IMG/VR virus record: IMGVR_UViG_2563366821_000008
Reading direction: 5' to 3' (one strand)
Length of the DNA: 8,588 nucleotides
DNA from: a virus
Lineage: Duplodnaviria > Heunggongvirae > Uroviricota > Caudoviricetes
Positions 956 through 8,588 of the stretch are shown in pieces. Numbering within the stretch: the first letter of the stretch is position 1; every line of letters begins with the position of its first letter. The notes beneath the pieces were generated by a model that saw only the letters and a list, made by a program, of their open reading frames with translations, was not told the origin of the DNA and made no database searches. The position numbers and the translations under genes were made by a program.

Positions 956-3900
956 ATGGGAAAAGGTGGCGGTAAGGCACACACGCCTCGTGAGGCGAAG
1001 GATAATCTCAAATCCACGCAGATGATGAGTGTGATTGATGCGATTGGTGAGGGACCGATAGAAGGTCCGGTGAAGGGACTGCAGAGTATTCTGGTGAACA
1101 AAACCCCGCTGACGGACACGGACGGTAATCCCGTGATACACGGTGTGACTGCGGTCTGGCGTGCCGGGGAGCAGGAGCAGACACCACCGGAAGGCTTTGA
1201 GTCCTCCGGAGCTGAAACCGGACTGGGCGTGGAAGTGACGAAGGCAAAACCGGTGACGCGCACCATTACGTCCGCGAACATTGACCGCCTGCGGGTTACC
1301 TTCGGGGTGCAGTCACTGGTGCAGACCACGTCAAAGGGCGACCGTAATCCTTCCTCTGTCCGGATTCTGATTCAGTTACAGCGTAATGGCCGCTGGGTGA
1401 CGGAAAAGGATGTCACCATTAACGGCAAGACCACCTCGCAGTTCCTGGCCTCGGTGATTCTGGATAATCTGCCTCCCCGGCCCTTTAACATCCGGATGGT
1501 CAGGGAGACGGCGGACAGCACCACGGACCAGCTGCAGAATAAGACGCTGTGGTCGTCATACACCGAAATCATCGATGTGAAACAGTGCTACCCGAACACG
1601 GCCATTGTGGGGCTGCAGGTGGATGCGGAGCAGTTCGGCGGCCAGCAGATGACGGTGAACTACCATATCCGCGGTCGCATCATCCAGGTGCCGTCAAACT
1701 ATGACCCGGAAAAACGCACGTACAGTGGTATCTGGGACGGCAGCCTGAAACCGGCATACAGCAACAACCCGGCCTGGTGTCTGTGGGACATGCTGACTCA
1801 CCCGCGCTACGGCATGGGAAAACGTCTGGGGGCGGCGGATGTGGACAAGTGGGCGCTGTATGCCATCGGGCAGTACTGCGACCAGACGGTCCCGGATGGT
1901 TTCGGGGGGACCGAGCCGCGGATGACCTTTAATGCGTACCTGGCACAACAGCGTAAGGCGTGGGACGTTCTCAGTGATTTCTGCTCTGCGATGCGCTGTA
2001 TGCCGGTATGGAACGGCCAGACGCTGACGTTCGTTCAGGACCGTCCGTCGGATGTGGTGTGGCCGTACACCAACAGCGATGTGGTGGTGGATGATAACGG
2101 CGTGGGTTTCCGCTACAGCTTCAGTGCCCTGAAGGACCGGCACACGGCAGTGGAGGTGAATTACACCGACCCGCAGAACGGCTGGCAGACCTCCACGGAA
2201 CTGGTGGAAGACCCGGAAGCCATACTGCGCTACGGACGCAACCTGCTGAAGATGGACGCGTTCGGCTGTACCAGCCGCGGTCAGGCCCACCGTGCCGGGC
2301 TGTGGGTGATAAAGACCGAACTGCTGGAAACGCAGACGGTGGATTTCACGCTCGGGTCACAGGGGCTGCGTCACACACCCGGTGACATCATTGAAATCTG
2401 TGATAACGACTATGCCGGGACCATGACCGGCGGACGTGTCCTGTCCATCGATGCCGCCAGCCGTACCCTGACGCTGGACCGGGAGGTGACACTGCCGGAG
2501 ACCGGCACGGCCACTGTTAATCTGATTAACGGCAGCGGTAAGCCGGCGAGCGTGGCCATCACCGCACACCCCGCGCCTGACCGGATACAGGTCAGCACCC
2601 TGCCGGATGGTGTGGAGACATACGGTGTGTGGGGACTCTCCCTGCCGTCACTGCGTCGTCGCCTGTTCCGCTGTGTCTCCATCCGGGAAAACACGGACGG
2701 CACCTTTGCCATCACGGCGGTGCAGCACGTACCTGAAAAAGAAGCCATCGTGGATAACGGGGCCCGCTTTGAGCCGCAGTCAGGCACCCTGAACAGCGTT
2801 ATCCCACCGGCAGTGCAGCACCTGACGGTGGAGGTGAGTGCAGCTGACGGTCAGTATCTGGCACAGGCGAAATGGGACACGCCGCGGGTGGTGAAGGGTG
2901 TGCGCTTCAGTCTGCGTCTGACCAGCGGAAGCGGAGAAGACAGCCGTCTGGTGAGCACCGCCAGCACCGCAGACACGGAGCACCGTTTCAGCGGTCTGCC
3001 GCTGGGGGAATACACCCTGACGGTGCGGGCCATTAACAGCTACGGCCAGCAGGGCGAACCTGCGACCACCACCTTCCGGATTAACGCGCCTGCAAAACCC
3101 GCCACCATTGAGCTGACGCCGGGGTATTTTCAGATAACGGCGGTACCGGTGCTGGCGGTGTATGACCCGACGGTGCAGTTTGAGTTCTGGTTTTCGGAAA
3201 AACGCATCACGAACACGGCACAGGTGGAAAAATCTGCCCGTTATCTGGGGACCGGCAGTCAGTGGACTGTCCAGGGCGATCGGATTAAGCCGGGGATGGA
3301 TTTCTGGTTTTATGTGCGCAGTGTCAACCTGGTGGGCAAGTCTGCATTTGTGGAAGCCAGCGGGCAGGCCAGCAATGATGCAAAAGGGTATCTGGAATTT
3401 TTCCGTGGTCTGATAGATGAGACGCTGCTGGGGCAGGCACTGAAAAAGCGCATTGATGCGTCAGCCCTGCGATCGGATGTCACTCAACTGGAAGAGAATA
3501 TCGGACAACTGGAAGAAGACATCCGTCAGCGGATGGACACGGATATTGCGGAAGTGACCCGGAAAATCGGGGAGGCGGAAAACAGCCTCACGCAGCTGGT
3601 TGCGAAAAAGAATGAGGATCAGACGCTGGCCATCGCGCAGGTGAGTCAGAAAGTGGACCGTGTCAGCAGTGAAATCTCACAGACGGTCAGTCAGAGCAGT
3701 GAGGAAAATACCCGACAGATAGCACAGGTCCGCCAGTACGTGGACAAAAAGCAAAGTGAAATCAAGCAGACAGTCAGCCAGGGCCAGTCAGAAAACGCCC
3801 GGCAGATAGCACAGGTCCGTCAGTACGTGGATGAAAAAGGGAGTGAAATTGCCTCGACCACGGATAAAAAACTGGGTGACCAGGCCGTGACCATACAGCA

Positions 3901-4756
3901 AATCCAGCGGGTTCAGTCAGACACGCGCGATAATCTGAATGCCATGTATATGCTGAAGGTGCAGAAAACGAAGAAGGGTATTCCGTATGTGGCCGGGATT
4001 GGCGCGGGGATCGAGGATGTCGATGGTCAGACGCTGAGTAACATTCTGCTGCAGGCCGATCGCATTGCGATGATTACTCCGGAGAACGGTAACACCACGC
4101 CGTTATTTGTGGCGCAGGGGAATCAGCTGTTCATGAACGACGTGTTCCTGAAGCGACTGTTTGCGGTGAGCATCACGTCATCCGGCAATCCTCCGACGTT
4201 TTCCCTGACGCCGGATGGCAGGCTGACAGCCCGCAATGCGGATATCAGTGGAGCCATCACGGCGAATACCGGCACGCTCAATAATGTCACCATTAACGAG
4301 AACTGTGTCATCAGAGGGAAACTGTCTGCAAACCAGATTGAAGGCGATCTCGTTAAAACAGTGGGTAAGGCTTTCCCCCGTGACTCCCGTGCACCGAAGC
4401 GTTGGCCATCAGGAACCATTACCGTCAGGGTTTATGACGATCAGCCGTTTAACCGGCAGATTGTTATTCCGGCGGTGGCTTTCAGCGGTGCCAGACATGA
4501 GCGGGAGAACAGCGATACTTATTCGTCATGCCGCCTGATAGTGAAGAAAAACGGTGCTGAAATTTATAACCGTACCGCGATGGATAATACGCTGGTTTAC
4601 AGTGGTGTTATTGATATGCCTGCTGGTCGCGGCCACATGACGCTGGAGTTTTCTGTATCAGCATGGTGGGTAAATGGCTGGTATCCCACAGCAAGTATCA
4701 GCGATTTGCTGGTTGTTGTGATGAAGAAAGCCACTGCAGGCATCACGATTAGCTGA
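956..4756 (+). CDS. J: Host specificity protein J (central tail fibre / tip attachment protein), 1266 aa
   Basis: ATG at 956 preceded by ggggaagg. N-terminus [22 protein letters not shown]..., and motifs such as [51 protein letters not shown] and [32 protein letters not shown], match lambda gpJ as I recall it. It is about 130 aa longer than lambda J (recalled as ~1130 aa) because of an internal coiled-coil expansion. Confidence 0.95.
3668..3850 (+). repeat. In-frame 87-bp tandem direct repeat (2 full copies plus the start of a third) inside J
   Basis: The motif agtgaaat recurs at 3668, 3755 and 3842 (period 87 bp = 29 codons). Translated copies are [29 protein letters not shown] and [29 protein letters not shown], followed by SEIAST. 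The nucleotide copies are near-identical in the cagatagcacaggtccg(c/t)cagtacgtgga core. Confidence 0.85.
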
Positions 4757-4823: not shown

Positions 4824-5423
4824 ATGCGTAAATTATGTGCTGCTATTTTGTCCGCAGTAGTCTGGCTGGTTGCCGCTGGTACGCCTGCATGGGCAGCAGA
4901 GCATCAGTCCACACTGAGCGCGGGGTATCTTCATGCCCGTACGAACGCTCCCGGCAGCGATAATCTGAACGGGATTAACGTGAAATACCGTTATGAGTTT
5001 ACGGACACGCTGGGGCTGATTACGTCTTTCAGTTATGCCGACGCAGAGGATGAACAAAAAACGCATTACAACGATACCCGCTGGCATGAAGATTCCGTGC
5101 GTAACCGCTGGTTCAGCGTGATGGCGGGGCCGTCTGTACGCGTGAATGAATGGTTCAGCGCGTATGCGATGGTGGGTGTGGCTTACAGCCGTGTGTCGAC
5201 TTTCTCCGGGGATTATCTCCGCGTAACTGACAACAAGGGGAAAACGCACGATGTGCTGACCGGAAGTGATGACGGTCGCCACAGCAACACGTCTCTGGCG
5301 TGGGGGGCTGGCGTGCAGTTTAACCCGACCGAATCCGTGACCATTGACCTTGCTTATGAAGGTTCCGGTAGTGGCGACTGGCGAACGGATGCATTTATTG
5401 TTGGTATCGGATACCGTTTCTGA
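4824..5423 (+). CDS. lom: Lom-like outer membrane protein (Ail/Lom family 8-strand beta-barrel), 199 aa
   Basis: ATG at 4824 preceded by gagagg. Signal peptide MRKLCAAILSAVVWLVAAGTPAWA with an AxA cleavage motif. GINVKYRYEFTD, SVMAGP, SAYAMVGVAYSR and the C-terminal IDLAYEGSGSGDWRTDAFIVGIGYRF (aromatic terminal residue) match lambda Lom as I recall it. The position directly after J is as in lambda. Confidence 0.9.
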   Translation: MRKLCAAILSAVVWLVAAGTPAWAAEHQSTLSAGYLHARTNAPGSDNLNGINVKYRYEFTDTLGLITSFSYADAEDEQKTHYNDTRWHEDSVRNRWFSVMAGPSVRVNEWFSAYAMVGVAYSRVSTFSGDYLRVTDNKGKTHDVLTGSDDGRHSNTSLAWGAGVQFNPTESVTIDLAYEGSGSGDWRTDAFIVGIGYRF

Positions 5424-5529
5424 CAACAGACGCCGATTTATCTTCTGTAAATATTGTTATGATACGCAGGTTCATCCACCTTATGGGGTGAACTGCGTTT
5501 GAGGAAACGTAAAGTTACACTGTCCTGAA

Positions 5530-5561
5530 GCCCGTGGCGTCACTGCTGCGGGCTTTTTTTA
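5530..5561 (+). terminator. Rho-independent terminator downstream of lom
   Basis: Stem of about 10 bp including G:U pairs (gcccgtggcg / tgctgcgggc) with loop tcac, followed by ttttttt (5554-5560). Immediately upstream of the stf ribosome-binding site. Confidence 0.65.
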
Positions 5562-5574
5562 TTGGTGGAAAAGT

Positions 5575-7641
5575 ATGACAGTAAAAATTTCTGGCGTGCT
5601 TAAAGATGGCACAGGAAAACCAGTACAGAACTGCACCATTGTGCTGAAGGCCAGACGAACCAGCAGCACGGTGGTGGTGAACACGGTGGCCTCTGAAAAT
5701 CCGGATGAAGCCGGACGTTACAGCATGGATGTTGAGCATGGTCAGTACAGCGTCACCCTGCTGGTTGAAGGTTTTCCGCCTTCACATGCCGGGACCATTA
5801 CCGTCTATGAAGGTTCCAGACCAGGTACGCTGAATGATTTTCTCGGCGCCATGACGGAGGATGATGTCCGTCCGGAGGCACTGCGCCGTTTTGAGCTGAT
5901 GGTGAATGAAGTGGCACGTCATGCCGGAGCGTCATCACAGAGTGCAGCGGCGGCAAAGAAATCCGAAACGGCAGCAGCCTCATCGAAGAATGCGGCGAAA
6001 ACCTCAGAAACGAATGCAGCTAACAGCGCACAGGCGGCAGCGGCCTCGCAGACTGCATCGGCAAACTCCGCGACAGCAGCCAAAAAATCAGAAACCAGCG
6101 CGAAAAATAGCGAGACAGCCACAAAGGCCAGCGAAAAAAACGCAAAATCCAGCCAGACGGCAGCGAAAACCAGTGAGACGAATGCCAAAGACAGTGAAGC
6201 CAACGCAAAGGTGAGCGAAACAGCGGCGGCGAACTCGGCGAAAGCATCGGCAGCAAGCCAGACGGCAGCAAAAGCAAGTGAAGATGCTGCCAGAGAATAC
6301 GCAAACCAGACAGCAGAGCCGTACAGATATGTTTTACAGCCGCTGCCGGATGTGTGGATACCCTTTAATGATTCGCTGGATATGATTACGGGCTATTCTC
6401 CGGGTTATAAAAAAGTGAAGATTGGTGATAATGTGGTTCAGGTTGCCAGTGATAAACAGGTTAATTTCAGTCGCGCATCAACGGCAACATATATCAACAA
6501 ATCTGGCGAACTGAAAACGGCGGAAATTAATGAGCCACGATTTGAGTGTGATGGCCTGCTTATTGAGGGGCAAAGAACGAACTTCTTCCCGAACAGTACA
6601 GACCCTTCGAAGTGGAATAAGTCAACTTCACTGGACGTTACAGAAACAGGCACAGATAGTTTCGGGTTTAATTATGGCCGGTTTGTCGTACAGGATTCGA
6701 TTGTTGGTACAAGTAAAGCGCATACCATTATCGGACTGTATTCGAGTACCGGAGGGGTTGATACTTCAGGGGACGAAAAGCATGTAACTATATCCTGTCG
6801 GGTAAAAAGTGAAGTTGATAATATCGCCGTTCGTATTTTATTTGAACATTATGATGGGGAGGTAAGGACATCAATAGGAGCAGCAAACCTGAACCTTACC
6901 ACCCGCATAATTAGCAAGACAGGTCAGACAAGCCGTGTTACAGCAAGGTCTGTTAAGGATGATGCAACTGGCTGGATATTTTTTGAGGCTACATTAAAAG
7001 CAGATACAACAGAAAATACGGTTGGTGGTTTTGTCCAGTATTCTCCGGATACAGGGCAGATGGTTGCATCAGGGGATTATCTCGATGTAACCACTCCACA
7101 GATTGAGGCTGGTACAGGCGCATCATCTTTTATTGTTACGGGGACGGCACCGGTAACGCGGGCAAGCGATATGGTTACAGTTCCGATTAAGAATAATCTT
7201 TATAATCTTCCTTTTACGGTTCTTTGTGAGGTACATAAGAACTGGTATAAAACGCCAAATGCAGCGCCACGTGTTTTTGATACCGGCGGTCATCAAACCG
7301 GAGCGGCTATTATTCTTGGCTTCGGATCTTCGGCAGATGGGCCAGACGGATTTCCTTATTGCGATATTGGTGGATCAAATAGGCGTGTTAACGAAAACGC
7401 ATCGTTGAAAAAAATGGTTATGGGGATGCGTGTAAAGTCAGATCAGTCTACATGTGCAGTAAGTAACGGGCGTATATCCAGCGAAACAAAAACCACATGG
7501 GAATATATCCGGAGTACAGCAATCATTCGCATTGGTGGACAAACTACAGCAGGATTACGCCATTTATTTGGGCATGTGAGGAATTTTCGTCTCTGGCATA
7601 AAGAGCTAACAGATGCGCAGCTTGGGGAGGTTGTGGAGTGA
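5575..7641 (+). CDS. stf: Side tail fibre protein Stf, mosaic: lambda-like N-terminal domain and heptad-repeat shaft joined to a non-lambda C-terminal domain (688 aa)
   Basis: N-terminus MTVKISGVLKDGTGKPVQNCTIVLKAR...GQYSVTLLVEGFPPSHAGTITVYE matches lambda Stf as I recall it. It is followed by an Ala/Ser/Thr/Lys-rich 7-residue repeat shaft, then an AT-richer C-terminal region of about 440 aa ending ...GHVRNFRLWHKELTDAQLGEVVE, which resembles the end motif of LamG-like / concanavalin-like jelly-roll domains (tentative). Confidence 0.9.
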   Translation: MTVKISGVLKDGTGKPVQNCTIVLKARRTSSTVVVNTVASENPDEAGRYSMDVEHGQYSVTLLVEGFPPSHAGTITVYEGSRPGTLNDFLGAMTEDDVRPEALRRFELMVNEVARHAGASSQSAAAAKKSETAAASSKNAAKTSETNAANSAQAAAASQTASANSATAAKKSETSAKNSETATKASEKNAKSSQTAAKTSETNAKDSEANAKVSETAAANSAKASAASQTAAKASEDAAREYANQTAEPYRYVLQPLPDVWIPFNDSLDMITGYSPGYKKVKIGDNVVQVASDKQVNFSRASTATYINKSGELKTAEINEPRFECDGLLIEGQRTNFFPNSTDPSKWNKSTSLDVTETGTDSFGFNYGRFVVQDSIVGTSKAHTIIGLYSSTGGVDTSGDEKHVTISCRVKSEVDNIAVRILFEHYDGEVRTSIGAANLNLTTRIISKTGQTSRVTARSVKDDATGWIFFEATLKADTTENTVGGFVQYSPDTGQMVASGDYLDVTTPQIEAGTGASSFIVTGTAPVTRASDMVTVPIKNNLYNLPFTVLCEVHKNWYKTPNAAPRVFDTGGHQTGAAIILGFGSSADGPDGFPYCDIGGSNRRVNENASLKKMVMGMRVKSDQSTCAVSNGRISSETKTTWEYIRSTAIIRIGGQTTAGLRHLFGHVRNFRLWHKELTDAQLGEVVE
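5935..6300 (+). repeat. Degenerate 21-bp (7-codon) tandem repeat region encoding the Stf shaft
   Basis: The translation parses into heptads (AKTSETN / AANSAQA / AAASQTA / SANSATA / AKKSETS / AKNSETA / TKASEKN / AKSSQTA / AKTSETN / AKDSEAN / AKVSETA ...). The repetition also generates long spurious ORFs in other frames and on the opposite strand. Confidence 0.8.
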
Positions 7642-7916
7642 GAGATTTCACGTTGCGTTTCAGTGATAAAGCAGATTTCAGGGCATTTCTCAGGAAACTT
7701 AACTGGGAAGAGGACGAAGAGCTGCAGAATGCCGTTCTGGTTGATGAGATTGGTTTTACGTTCAGTGAGTCAGGTGTTTCTGCTGACGGGGAGCCAGAAT
7801 ACACGCGAAACGAAGGGTACTTTGTTAATATCCGTCTTCTTGACGATGGCTTTGATGATTCCGTGTTCCGTGAGTGGGTGGTTACACCAGAGCGCCCGCT
7901 CAGGGAGTGGTTTTAA
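7638..7916 (+). CDS. Hypothetical acidic 92-aa protein, translationally coupled to stf (candidate fibre-specific chaperone/assembly factor)
   Basis: GTG start at 7638 overlaps the stf stop (gtGTGa) and is preceded by ggggagg at 7624-7630. There is no in-frame ATG anywhere in the ORF. The protein is highly acidic (many D/E), with no hydrophobic segment. I recognise no family. The overlapping alternative-frame ORF 7663..7965 translates to an Arg/Cys-rich product that does not look protein-like. Confidence 0.6.
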   Translation: MRDFTLRFSDKADFRAFLRKLNWEEDEELQNAVLVDEIGFTFSESGVSADGEPEYTRNEGYFVNIRLLDDGFDDSVFREWVVTPERPLREWF

Positions 7917-7925
7917 GGATAGCAG

Positions 7926-8222
7926 ATGGATATCACGTCGATACTTCATGCAATTTGTGCAGTAGCCGTACAGGGGCTGGTTGGGTGCATTACCGGTGAC
8001 TGGGCTTATGGTGCAGCCATTGCCTGTACGTTTTTTGTTGCCCGCGAATATACCCAGGCAGAATATCGCTGGATTAAGCGTTTTGGTGATGGTCACCGAC
8101 AGAACATGCCGTGGTGGGGCGGTTTTGATCCGCGTGTGTGGAATGTGGCCAGTCTGATGGATTTTGTGGTGCCGGTGGTGGCCTGTGCGGGATTGTATGG
8201 CTGTATGCTGATTTTTAGCTGA
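7926..8222 (+). CDS. Hypothetical small integral membrane protein, 98 aa (2-3 predicted TM segments)
   Basis: ATG at 7926 with aagga 6 nt upstream, 9 bp after the previous stop. Hydrophobic segments ILHAICAVAVQGLVGCI, YGAAIACTFFVA and VASLMDFVVPVVACAGLYGCMLIF. A lipobox-like LVGC occurs at residues 18-21, but the N-region carries no positive charge. A hairpin follows the stop codon. Confidence 0.6.
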   Translation: MDITSILHAICAVAVQGLVGCITGDWAYGAAIACTFFVAREYTQAEYRWIKRFGDGHRQNMPWWGGFDPRVWNVASLMDFVVPVVACAGLYGCMLIFS

Positions 8223-8248
8223 AAAAAAGGGGAGCACTCAGGCTCCCC
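8222..8248 (-). terminator. Rho-independent terminator for the - strand dinI-like gene (may also attenuate + strand read-through)
   Basis: Stem ggggagc (8229-8235) / gctcccc (8242-8248) with loop actcag. On the + strand it is preceded by a7 (8222-8228), giving U7 after the stem on the - strand transcript. Confidence 0.65.
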
Positions 8249-8339
8249 AACCAGAAGAAGTCGCTTGAAACGACAAGCTCGTTGTTATGCCTTTTAAGAA
8301 TGTCATACAAAACAGGTCATTACAGTGATTATGATCCCG

Positions 8340-8588
8340 TTATTGCATAAACCAGTCGTCCGCGGTTTGCCAGACTTCCTGTAGTGTTTCCTGTACGAAC
8401 TCCAGTGCTGATTCTTTATCGACGGCTCTTAAAATGGTGAGTCCATCATTGCTGGCAGATTTAACGATCACATCTGCATCGTCATATCGCTTACCTATGC
8501 GGCGCAGCATTTCTTGCTGCAGAGCAGGAACAGAACCTTTCGGCATTTTGCTGATTTTTTCTTTAGCGATACAGATCTCAACACGCAT
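8340..8588 (-). CDS. dinI: DinI-family DNA-damage-inducible protein (prophage DinI-like), 82 aa
   Basis: Translation [35 protein letters not shown]...[14 protein letters not shown] has the length and the MR(I/V)E..IAK start and W..ADDWF end of E. coli DinI as I recall it. The start codon lies exactly at the window edge, so the promoter and any LexA box are outside the window. Confidence 0.85.

Follow-up and report, generated by a model that had tools for sequence, protein, structure and literature searches.

Tfa-type chaperones, such as lambda Tfa, Mu gpU and P2 gpG (PF02413, Caudo_TAP), are small proteins encoded directly downstream of a tail fibre gene, and Peptidase_S74 chaperones (T5 Ltf, K1F endosialidase, DT57C LtfA/LtfB) are an alternative solution to the folding of the fibre C-terminus. 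Cor/Llp lipoproteins are also encoded beside receptor-binding genes, and small inner-membrane exclusion morons (HK97 gp15, P22 SieA, T4 Imm) occur in tail regions, being variably present in temperate phages. Here we describe two genes, ORF92 and ORF98, which follow the side tail fibre gene (stf) in an 8,588-nt stretch of DNA (IMG/VR record IMGVR_UViG_2563366821_000008, Caudoviricetes; "the window" hereafter). The DNA comes from a lambdoid Escherichia coli prophage, of whose late operon it forms the right end. Judging from the sequence comparisons reported below, ORF92 is most likely an accessory protein of a lectin-headed fibre (a chaperone, a cap, or a small subunit or adaptor), and ORF98 is most likely a moron-type inner-membrane factor. 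A literature search found no discussion of either protein family. The genes and sites concerned are the following.

5575-7641, plus strand: stf, side tail fibre of 688 aa (PF08400, E 4.2e-68; phrog_1419; NF048003; PDB 6TB9)
7252-7638, plus strand: C-terminal head of Stf, its last 129 aa, which tracks with ORF92 (tblastn of phage records)
7624-7630, plus strand: GGGGAGG, Shine-Dalgarno-like site for ORF92 within the 3' end of stf (sequence reading)
7638-7916, plus strand: ORF92, 92 aa, GTG start, acidic alpha/beta protein, putative fibre accessory (PHROG 1361)
7915-7919, plus strand: AAGGA, ribosome-binding site of ORF98, overlapping the ORF92 stop codon (sequence reading)
7926-8222, plus strand: ORF98, 98 aa, ATG start, predicted three-helix membrane protein (PHROG 1443)

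The stf stop codon (TGA, 7639-7641) overlaps the GTG of ORF92 (7638-7640) in the tetranucleotide GTGA, GGGGAGG lies 7 nt upstream of this GTG, and ORF98 starts 9 nt past the ORF92 stop. Gene coordinates, start codons, overlap, Shine-Dalgarno-like site and 9-nt gap had all been given in a preliminary description of this DNA, and a check of the sequence returned every one of them. A stop/start overlap (GTGA, ATGA or TAATG) with an upstream Shine-Dalgarno-like motif recurs in 7 other phages. Synthesis of ORF92 would thus be kept in step with that of Stf through translational coupling.

Both ORFs are real genes under purifying selection. Database searches with the two returned 69 and 230 homologues. 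For ORF92, pN was 0.25-0.38 against a saturated pS of 0.77-0.89, and selection holds in lineages with and without a second fibre gene (see below); for ORF98, dN/dS was about 0.2. The conservation and the selection bear out the preliminary gene calls, and since both are real genes, the 155-aa ORF on the minus strand at 7770-8237 is spurious. ORF92 matches PHROG 1361 over its whole length (residues 1-92 to profile positions 1-92 of 92, E 1.4e-39), with a further weak match to phrog_18574. Residues 1-91 of ORF98 match positions 1-91 of the 97 in PHROG 1443 (E 1.2e-44), its only other PHROG match being 34165. PHROG 1361 and PHROG 1443 are both uncharacterised in function. We did not find anything above noise for either protein in Pfam (E<=1), NCBIfam or PADLOC (E<=1), nor any match when the family profiles were searched against PDB, and ten distant relatives of ORF98 produced sub-threshold noise only in Pfam; the early remark that neither resembles lambda Tfa or a known family therefore holds. 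The two families are thus catalogued yet functionally uncharacterised, while the kinds of gene they would represent, a fibre accessory and a membrane moron of prophages, are well known. ORF92 is hydrophilic with a pI of 4.28, as expected from its first description as acidic and soluble-looking, and has a predicted beta-alpha-alpha-beta4 fold (pLDDT 86.6). Its only Foldseek matches among viral models were proteins of 80-105 aa, all uncharacterised and belonging to uncultured phages.

The fibre that ORF92 follows consists of a prophage tail-fibre N-terminal domain, an Ala/Ser-rich stalk, a domain resembling the head spike fibre of gene transfer agents (GTA), and a lectin-like C-terminal head. 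Residues 329-530 match phrog_1419 and NF048003 (GTA_spike_fiber), and residues ~298-545 are homologous to the Rhodobacter capsulatus GTA (RcGTA) head spike fibre Rcc01080 (PDB 6TB9, E 6e-6), a homology which suggests that the fibre accompanied by ORF92 carries a glycan-binding jelly-roll module. A Pfam scan of Stf did not find a Peptidase_S74 domain (PF13884). The head of this Stf type has been called lectin-like or galectin-like (PMC11990801; bioRxiv 10.1101/2024.10.28.620165); the two BASEL papers and the tail-fibre atlas describe it, and do not discuss the small downstream protein. The stalk, at residues ~110-245 (window 5900-6300), is repetitive and rich in Ala, Ser, Lys and Glu (KKSETAA, KTSETNA and similar), and its DNA has an extreme AT skew, up to 0.7; the stalk gives spurious weak matches to many unrelated families.

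Using tblastn, we found an ORF92 homologue in 175 phage records. The carriers include lambdoid temperate phages and, among virulent phages, Drexlerviridae (T1-like), Tequintavirus and Epseptimavirus (T5-like), Vequintavirus (rV5-like), Dhillonvirus and Nonagvirus. A search with the 129-aa C-terminus of Stf gave 189 phage records, whose distribution over taxa is nearly identical, so that ORF92 and the Stf head co-occur almost one-to-one over at least six phage lineages, the virulent ones included. In nearly all matches listed, the ORF92 match touches an upstream "tail fiber" gene, and in KarlJaspers, swan01, Stokescottia, FGS017, IrisVonRoten, EmilHeitz, rolling, JenP2, 2G7b and PhiR11_1 the fibre gene is followed by ORF92 with overlapping or abutting codons. 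One homologue, gp23 of IrisVonRoten, is itself annotated as "tail fiber protein". That ORF92 is kept in virulent phages argues that it is not lysogeny cargo. Several of the records, MG065692, MG065676 and OR847733 among them, are labelled as Campylobacter or Listeria phages, contain fibre and ORF92 sequences of E. coli rV5-like or T1-like phages, and are probably mislabelled or contaminated.

In many relatives, among them 2G7b, Stokescottia, IrisVonRoten and JenP2, a second fibre gene of the Peptidase_S74 type begins 9-13 nt after ORF92. This second fibre is missing in the window, ev243, PhiR40_1 and Lambda_2E9, yet ORF92 is retained in all four, which ties ORF92 to the first fibre. We infer that ORF92 acts on that fibre, either as an assembly chaperone or as a small distal subunit or adaptor.

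The distribution of ORF98 is different. It was identified by tblastn in 58 phage records, 53 of them Escherichia; the listed Escherichia records include lambdoid phages (phage 21, mEp460) and P22-like Lederbergvirus, those inspected in detail are all lambdoid or P22-like, and among the listed ones we did not find any virulent phage carrying ORF92. ORF98 is thus variably present: absent from virulent phages with the same fibre and ORF92, and found in lambdoid, P22-like and P2-like temperate phages. About 130 virulent phage records have ORF92 and the fibre without ORF98 (E<=1e-5), and conversely ORF98 occurs without ORF92 in P22-like phages, in a P2-like prophage and in bacterial chromosomes. 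Since the genes are separable in both directions, treating them as a single module is unjustified. The preliminary description had asked whether the pair always travels with this type of Stf C-terminus; ORF92 does, while ORF98 has its own range. Our preferred explanation, at about even odds, is that ORF92 and ORF98 are independent cassettes, adjacent here by chance, with ORF92 a fibre accessory and ORF98 a moron-type inner-membrane factor. The two also differ in composition, ORF98 having about 53% GC against 43-47% in ORF92 and the Stf C-terminus.

The genomic settings of ORF98 in phages are varied. In the P22-like phage Gally the gene order is tailspike, ORF98, int, and in vB_EcoP-611R6 it is tailspike, the O-acetylase gene OafA, ORF98, int; the place between tailspike and int is the classical lysogenic-conversion position. 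A P2-like Comamonas prophage has an ORF98 homologue between the receptor-binding protein and sheath genes, and another Comamonas prophage has one after a giant J-like protein. In 2G7b and PhiR11_1 a 345-aa second fibre with Peptidase_S74 lies between ORF92 and ORF98 (locus positions 3418-4494 and 3666-4748, respectively), and a terminator-like hairpin, GGGGYCGAGCGCCCC plus GTTTTATT, stands after this second fibre, directly before ORF98. Gally too has a terminator-like hairpin immediately upstream of ORF98. Next to these loci, the window looks like a derivative without the second fibre. At locus positions 5126-8324 of the Comamonas kerstersii P2-like prophage we also observed five genes between gpI and sheath, encoding a 123-aa fibre N-terminal piece, a 311-aa fibre, an acidic 107-aa protein, a 368-aa protein and the ORF98 homologue. 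Read by eye, the 368-aa protein appears to have an FGE/C-type-lectin-like motif (GWHCITNAEWSAIALWC) and might be a receptor-binding protein of the DGR-target type.

Beyond phages, a HMMER scan delimited the ORF98 family to 453 clusters at 50% identity, all of ~90-120 aa. GTDB species representatives with a member belong to Escherichia, Leclercia, Silvania, Aeromonas, Halomonas, Comamonas, Acidovorax, sphingomonads, Devosia and Desulfovibrio. In four Aeromonas species the homologue is a lone chromosomal gene between pirin and RIO1, and in alphaproteobacteria the homologues stand in varied housekeeping contexts; pirin and RIO1 in Aeromonas apart, we did not find any recurrent neighbour of the chromosomal homologues. 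ORF98-like DNA is present in 1912 of 5426 complete E. coli genomes (~35%), with up to 7 copies per genome. One carrier is BL21(DE3), whose Rac remnant (NC_012892.2, 1407115-1408539) has a truncated lectin-type Stf, B21_RS07170 (ORF92), B21_RS07175 (ORF98), a tfa remnant and pinR; Stf-ORF92-ORF98 occupies the site of stfR-tfaR in K-12. This order, with the pair between the truncated Stf and the tfa remnant and pinR, agrees with the initial placement of the two genes at the tfa position. A literature search for the BL21 protein accessions found nothing.

Several observations weigh against the picture of a fibre accessory beside an unrelated moron. On the side of ORF92, the predicted fold resembles no known chaperone, and across 14 loci the identity of ORF92 showed no correlation with that of the 129-aa Stf C-terminus (Spearman 0.09, Mantel p ~0.09). 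On the side of ORF98, the 9-nt gap in the window contains no terminator or promoter-like site, so that ORF98 is probably co-transcribed here with the late tail genes, unlike the classic moron layout. In addition, an 87-aa ORF98-like gene lies between large fibre-like genes in the jumbo Aeromonas phage ACP1 (236 kb; locus positions 3923-4186), and another of the same length among the structural genes of the P22-like Aeromonas phage 4_4512 (locus positions 3938-4201); these two copies mean that the family is not strictly confined to prophage ends. Finally, the gene immediately before the ORF98 homologue in Comamonas prophages encodes a phrog_18574 protein with a weak relationship to ORF92.

As for ORF92, its identity does follow that of more upstream fibre segments in the same 14 loci, which suggests that the head domain has been swapped independently. 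The lack of co-variation with the head thus points to a general companion of the fibre architecture and not to a chaperone tailored to one head allele. The original proposal of a dedicated Stf chaperone is in this way retained for the general association of ORF92 with the Stf head and not borne out for dedication to this particular C-terminal domain.

As for ORF98, the same observations bear on the possibility that the two genes form one two-gene module serving the fibre, with ORF98 as, for example, a membrane-anchored assembly platform or another fibre-linked late function. The ORF92-ORF98 gap is 9 nt in PhiR40_1 and ev243 as in the window, and ~12 nt in Lambda_2E9; among the 80 IMG/VR loci closest to the window ORF98, ORF92 is directly upstream in 45 and within ~1.1 kb in 76, although these best 80 are almost entirely close E. 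coli relatives. The fibre-like flanks in ACP1 and the Comamonas neighbour point the same way. This explanation has to contend with the ~130 records of ORF92 and fibre without ORF98, with the P22-like phages and the P2-like prophage that have ORF98 alone, with chromosomal ORF98 genes that stand by themselves, and with 2G7b and PhiR11_1, in which a second fibre gene and then a terminator-like hairpin come between ORF92 and ORF98. Moreover, a comparison by hhalign of ORF92 with the phrog_18574 neighbour in Comamonas gave no significant match, the link being a shared PHROG profile match only. We consider a single fibre-serving module unlikely; nevertheless, the 9-nt gap, the Aeromonas phage contexts and the Comamonas neighbour keep a fibre-linked role of ORF98 alive as a minority hypothesis.

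Returning to ORF98 as a moron-type factor, its properties are those of a small polytopic membrane protein. AlphaFold2 (AF2) predicts three helices (residues 4-23, 26-53 and 74-97; pLDDT 94.3), at the upper end of the 2-3 transmembrane segments first proposed. The loop between helices 2 and 3 contains all six Lys/Arg residues of the protein and a near-invariant motif, AREHTQAEYRWI..FG.GKR.NMPWWGGFDPR.W (also written REHxQAEYRWI...MPWWGGFDPR.W), and H8 and Q16 in helix 1 are invariant in the family. With all six basic residues in one loop, the positive-inside rule predicts an inner-membrane protein whose conserved loop is cytoplasmic.

We propose that ORF98 comes from a large family which temperate phages have in common with bacterial chromosomes, that its capture probably took place where receptor-binding-protein loci end and recombination is frequent, and that it would most likely act in the host envelope, by superinfection exclusion or envelope modification, through this highly conserved, probably cytoplasmic loop. 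Given its location and neighbours, we would guess first at inner-membrane superinfection exclusion or at interference with the assembly of envelope glycans as its function; its moron status in this prophage, like any such mechanism, is put forward here as a conjecture. The preliminary description had suggested a lysogenic-conversion or exclusion factor, possibly of the receptor-masking Cor/Llp kind: the distribution and the moron-like placement fit the first part of this suggestion, and the second is made unlikely by the lack of a conserved Cys and by the Lys/Arg-rich loop, as follows.

A Cor/Llp-type factor would mask the receptor of the adjacent fibre or otherwise prevent adsorption. ORF98 does adjoin receptor-binding genes in several phage types, and LVGC at residues 18-21 of the window allele resembles a lipobox. 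This LVGC, however, is found in this allele and its closest relatives only, the family consensus having Leu at the Cys column, and there is no basic residue before helix 1, hence no positively charged N-region. The AF2 model is of an integral membrane protein, predicted to reside in the inner membrane by its single Lys/Arg-bearing loop. ORF98 sequences also remain 50-60% identical among E. coli, Comamonas and Aeromonas copies beside unrelated receptor-binding proteins, which argues against receptor-specific masking. We judge such a role very improbable for ORF98.

Anti-phage defence or toxin-antitoxin cargo in a tail-fibre hotspot, involving the pair or ORF98 alone, would agree with the known moron/defence hotspot near the prophage end and with the variable presence of ORF98 among related phages. 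Yet no PADLOC-DB family matches either protein at the threshold given above, ORF92 is syntenic in the fibre loci of virulent phages, and the chromosomal ORF98 homologues are lone genes in housekeeping contexts with no recurrent partner. The initial idea of a two-gene cargo or defence module finds no support for the pair, whose members are separable both ways and one of which, ORF92, is core in virulent-phage fibre loci; cargo of this sort is in our estimate improbable. A holin-like or other lysis-timing membrane protein appears hardly credible: small size, three hydrophobic helices and the probable co-transcription with late genes would suit it, but ORF98 matches no holin family in Pfam or PHROGs, lies after fibre genes outside the lysis cassette (the lysis genes of BL21 Rac are several kb upstream), has chromosomal copies outside phages, and is conserved in a polar loop, which is atypical for holins.

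A wider reading, extending to each of the two genes separately, is possible, though we consider it rather unlikely. ORF98 would represent a large unnamed family of inner-membrane proteins (in Gamma-, Beta- and Alphaproteobacteria and Desulfovibrio) whose loop performs a conserved biochemical task at the cytoplasmic face, and which has been repeatedly captured by temperate phages of three morphotypes beside glycan-targeting receptor-binding genes, possibly as a new lysogenic-conversion or exclusion factor acting, for example, on undecaprenyl-linked glycan assembly or phage DNA entry. ORF92, for its part, would represent a new class of accessory proteins, unrelated to Tfa, for the lectin-headed fibres of lambdoid, T1-like, T5-like, rV5-like and other coliphages.

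The remaining features of the window are listed below.

31-612: tail assembly I-like gene
956-4756: J
4824-5423: lom
8229-8248, minus strand: GC-rich hairpin then a run of seven T, candidate terminator of the dinI-like gene (the A-run precedes it on the plus strand)
8340-8588, minus strand: dinI-like gene, 82 aa, convergent (PF06183, E 6.7e-17)

The preliminary description had a hairpin follow ORF98. It exists at 8229-8248, facing the convergent dinI-like gene; since its T-run is on the minus strand, it is the expected terminator of the dinI-like gene and not obviously that of ORF98. A second, weaker hairpin on the same strand lies just beyond, at 8260-8278, and we did not find a canonical terminator for the plus-strand late transcript in this hairpin region (8229-8278). 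In the near-identical phage PhiR40_1, the next gene after dinI is the integrase; by this comparison the leftward dinI-int arm, close to the end of the prophage, begins with the dinI-like gene.

At the other end of the window, an AT-rich stretch of ~340 bp (613-955) separates the tail assembly gene I from J. In lambda, I and J abut. The stretch is unannotated, is found in 1662 of 5426 complete E. coli genomes, and contains two strong hairpins, CCCGCAG...CTGCGGG near 628-657 and AAACCCCGGTATC...GATACCGGGGTTT near 823-851. An Rfam scan of the window, this stretch included, gave no match. The stretch may represent a small moron, a small RNA or a pair of terminators.

These results have some practical bearing. 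Many model and therapeutic coliphages, including IrisVonRoten, KarlJaspers and EmilHeitz of the BASEL collection, have ORF92 in their lateral-fibre loci, and the engineering or swapping of lectin-headed fibres may fail if it is omitted. About one complete E. coli genome in three has ORF98, frequently more than once, and so does BL21(DE3); should the protein change the envelope or the susceptibility of the host to phages, prophages would be contributing to host phenotype in a way so far overlooked. More generally, two genes beside a tail fibre can look like a module and yet be neighbours by chance that differ in evolutionary range, which matters for the annotation of moron and defence hotspots.

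Among the described systems, ORF92 is closest to the Tfa-type chaperones. Like them, it is small, encoded directly downstream of a fibre gene, at the tfa position of lambda and K-12 Rac, and co-inherited with one fibre C-terminal type (175 versus 189 records). Unlike Tfa, neither ORF92 nor ORF98 matches PF02413 (Pfam, E<=1; no NCBIfam match). With respect to the Peptidase_S74 chaperones, the difference is that the present Stf lacks the S74 domain and that ORF92 is a separate polypeptide unrelated to it. DT57C LtfA/LtfB, considered as a precedent, was ruled out from the literature, as S74 chaperones are used there and no such small gene is present. The likeness to RcGTA Rcc01080 (6TB9) concerns Stf, and not ORF92 or ORF98. 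Cor/Llp lipoproteins share with ORF98 the place beside receptor-binding genes; ORF98, by comparison, is polytopic, has no conserved lipobox Cys, and has a sequence independent of the neighbouring receptor-binding protein. The inner-membrane exclusion morons HK97 gp15, P22 SieA and T4 Imm have no sequence relation to ORF98 in PHROGs, and differ from it in that the ORF98 family also includes ordinary chromosomal genes of Aeromonas and sphingomonads, and in that ORF98 is probably not a separate transcription unit in the window. Their likeness to ORF98, which is similarly small, predicted to be in the inner membrane, located in or beside the tail region and variably present in temperate phages, is one of location and predicted topology, and in some relatives it extends to a place behind a terminator-like hairpin and beside lysogenic-conversion genes such as OafA.

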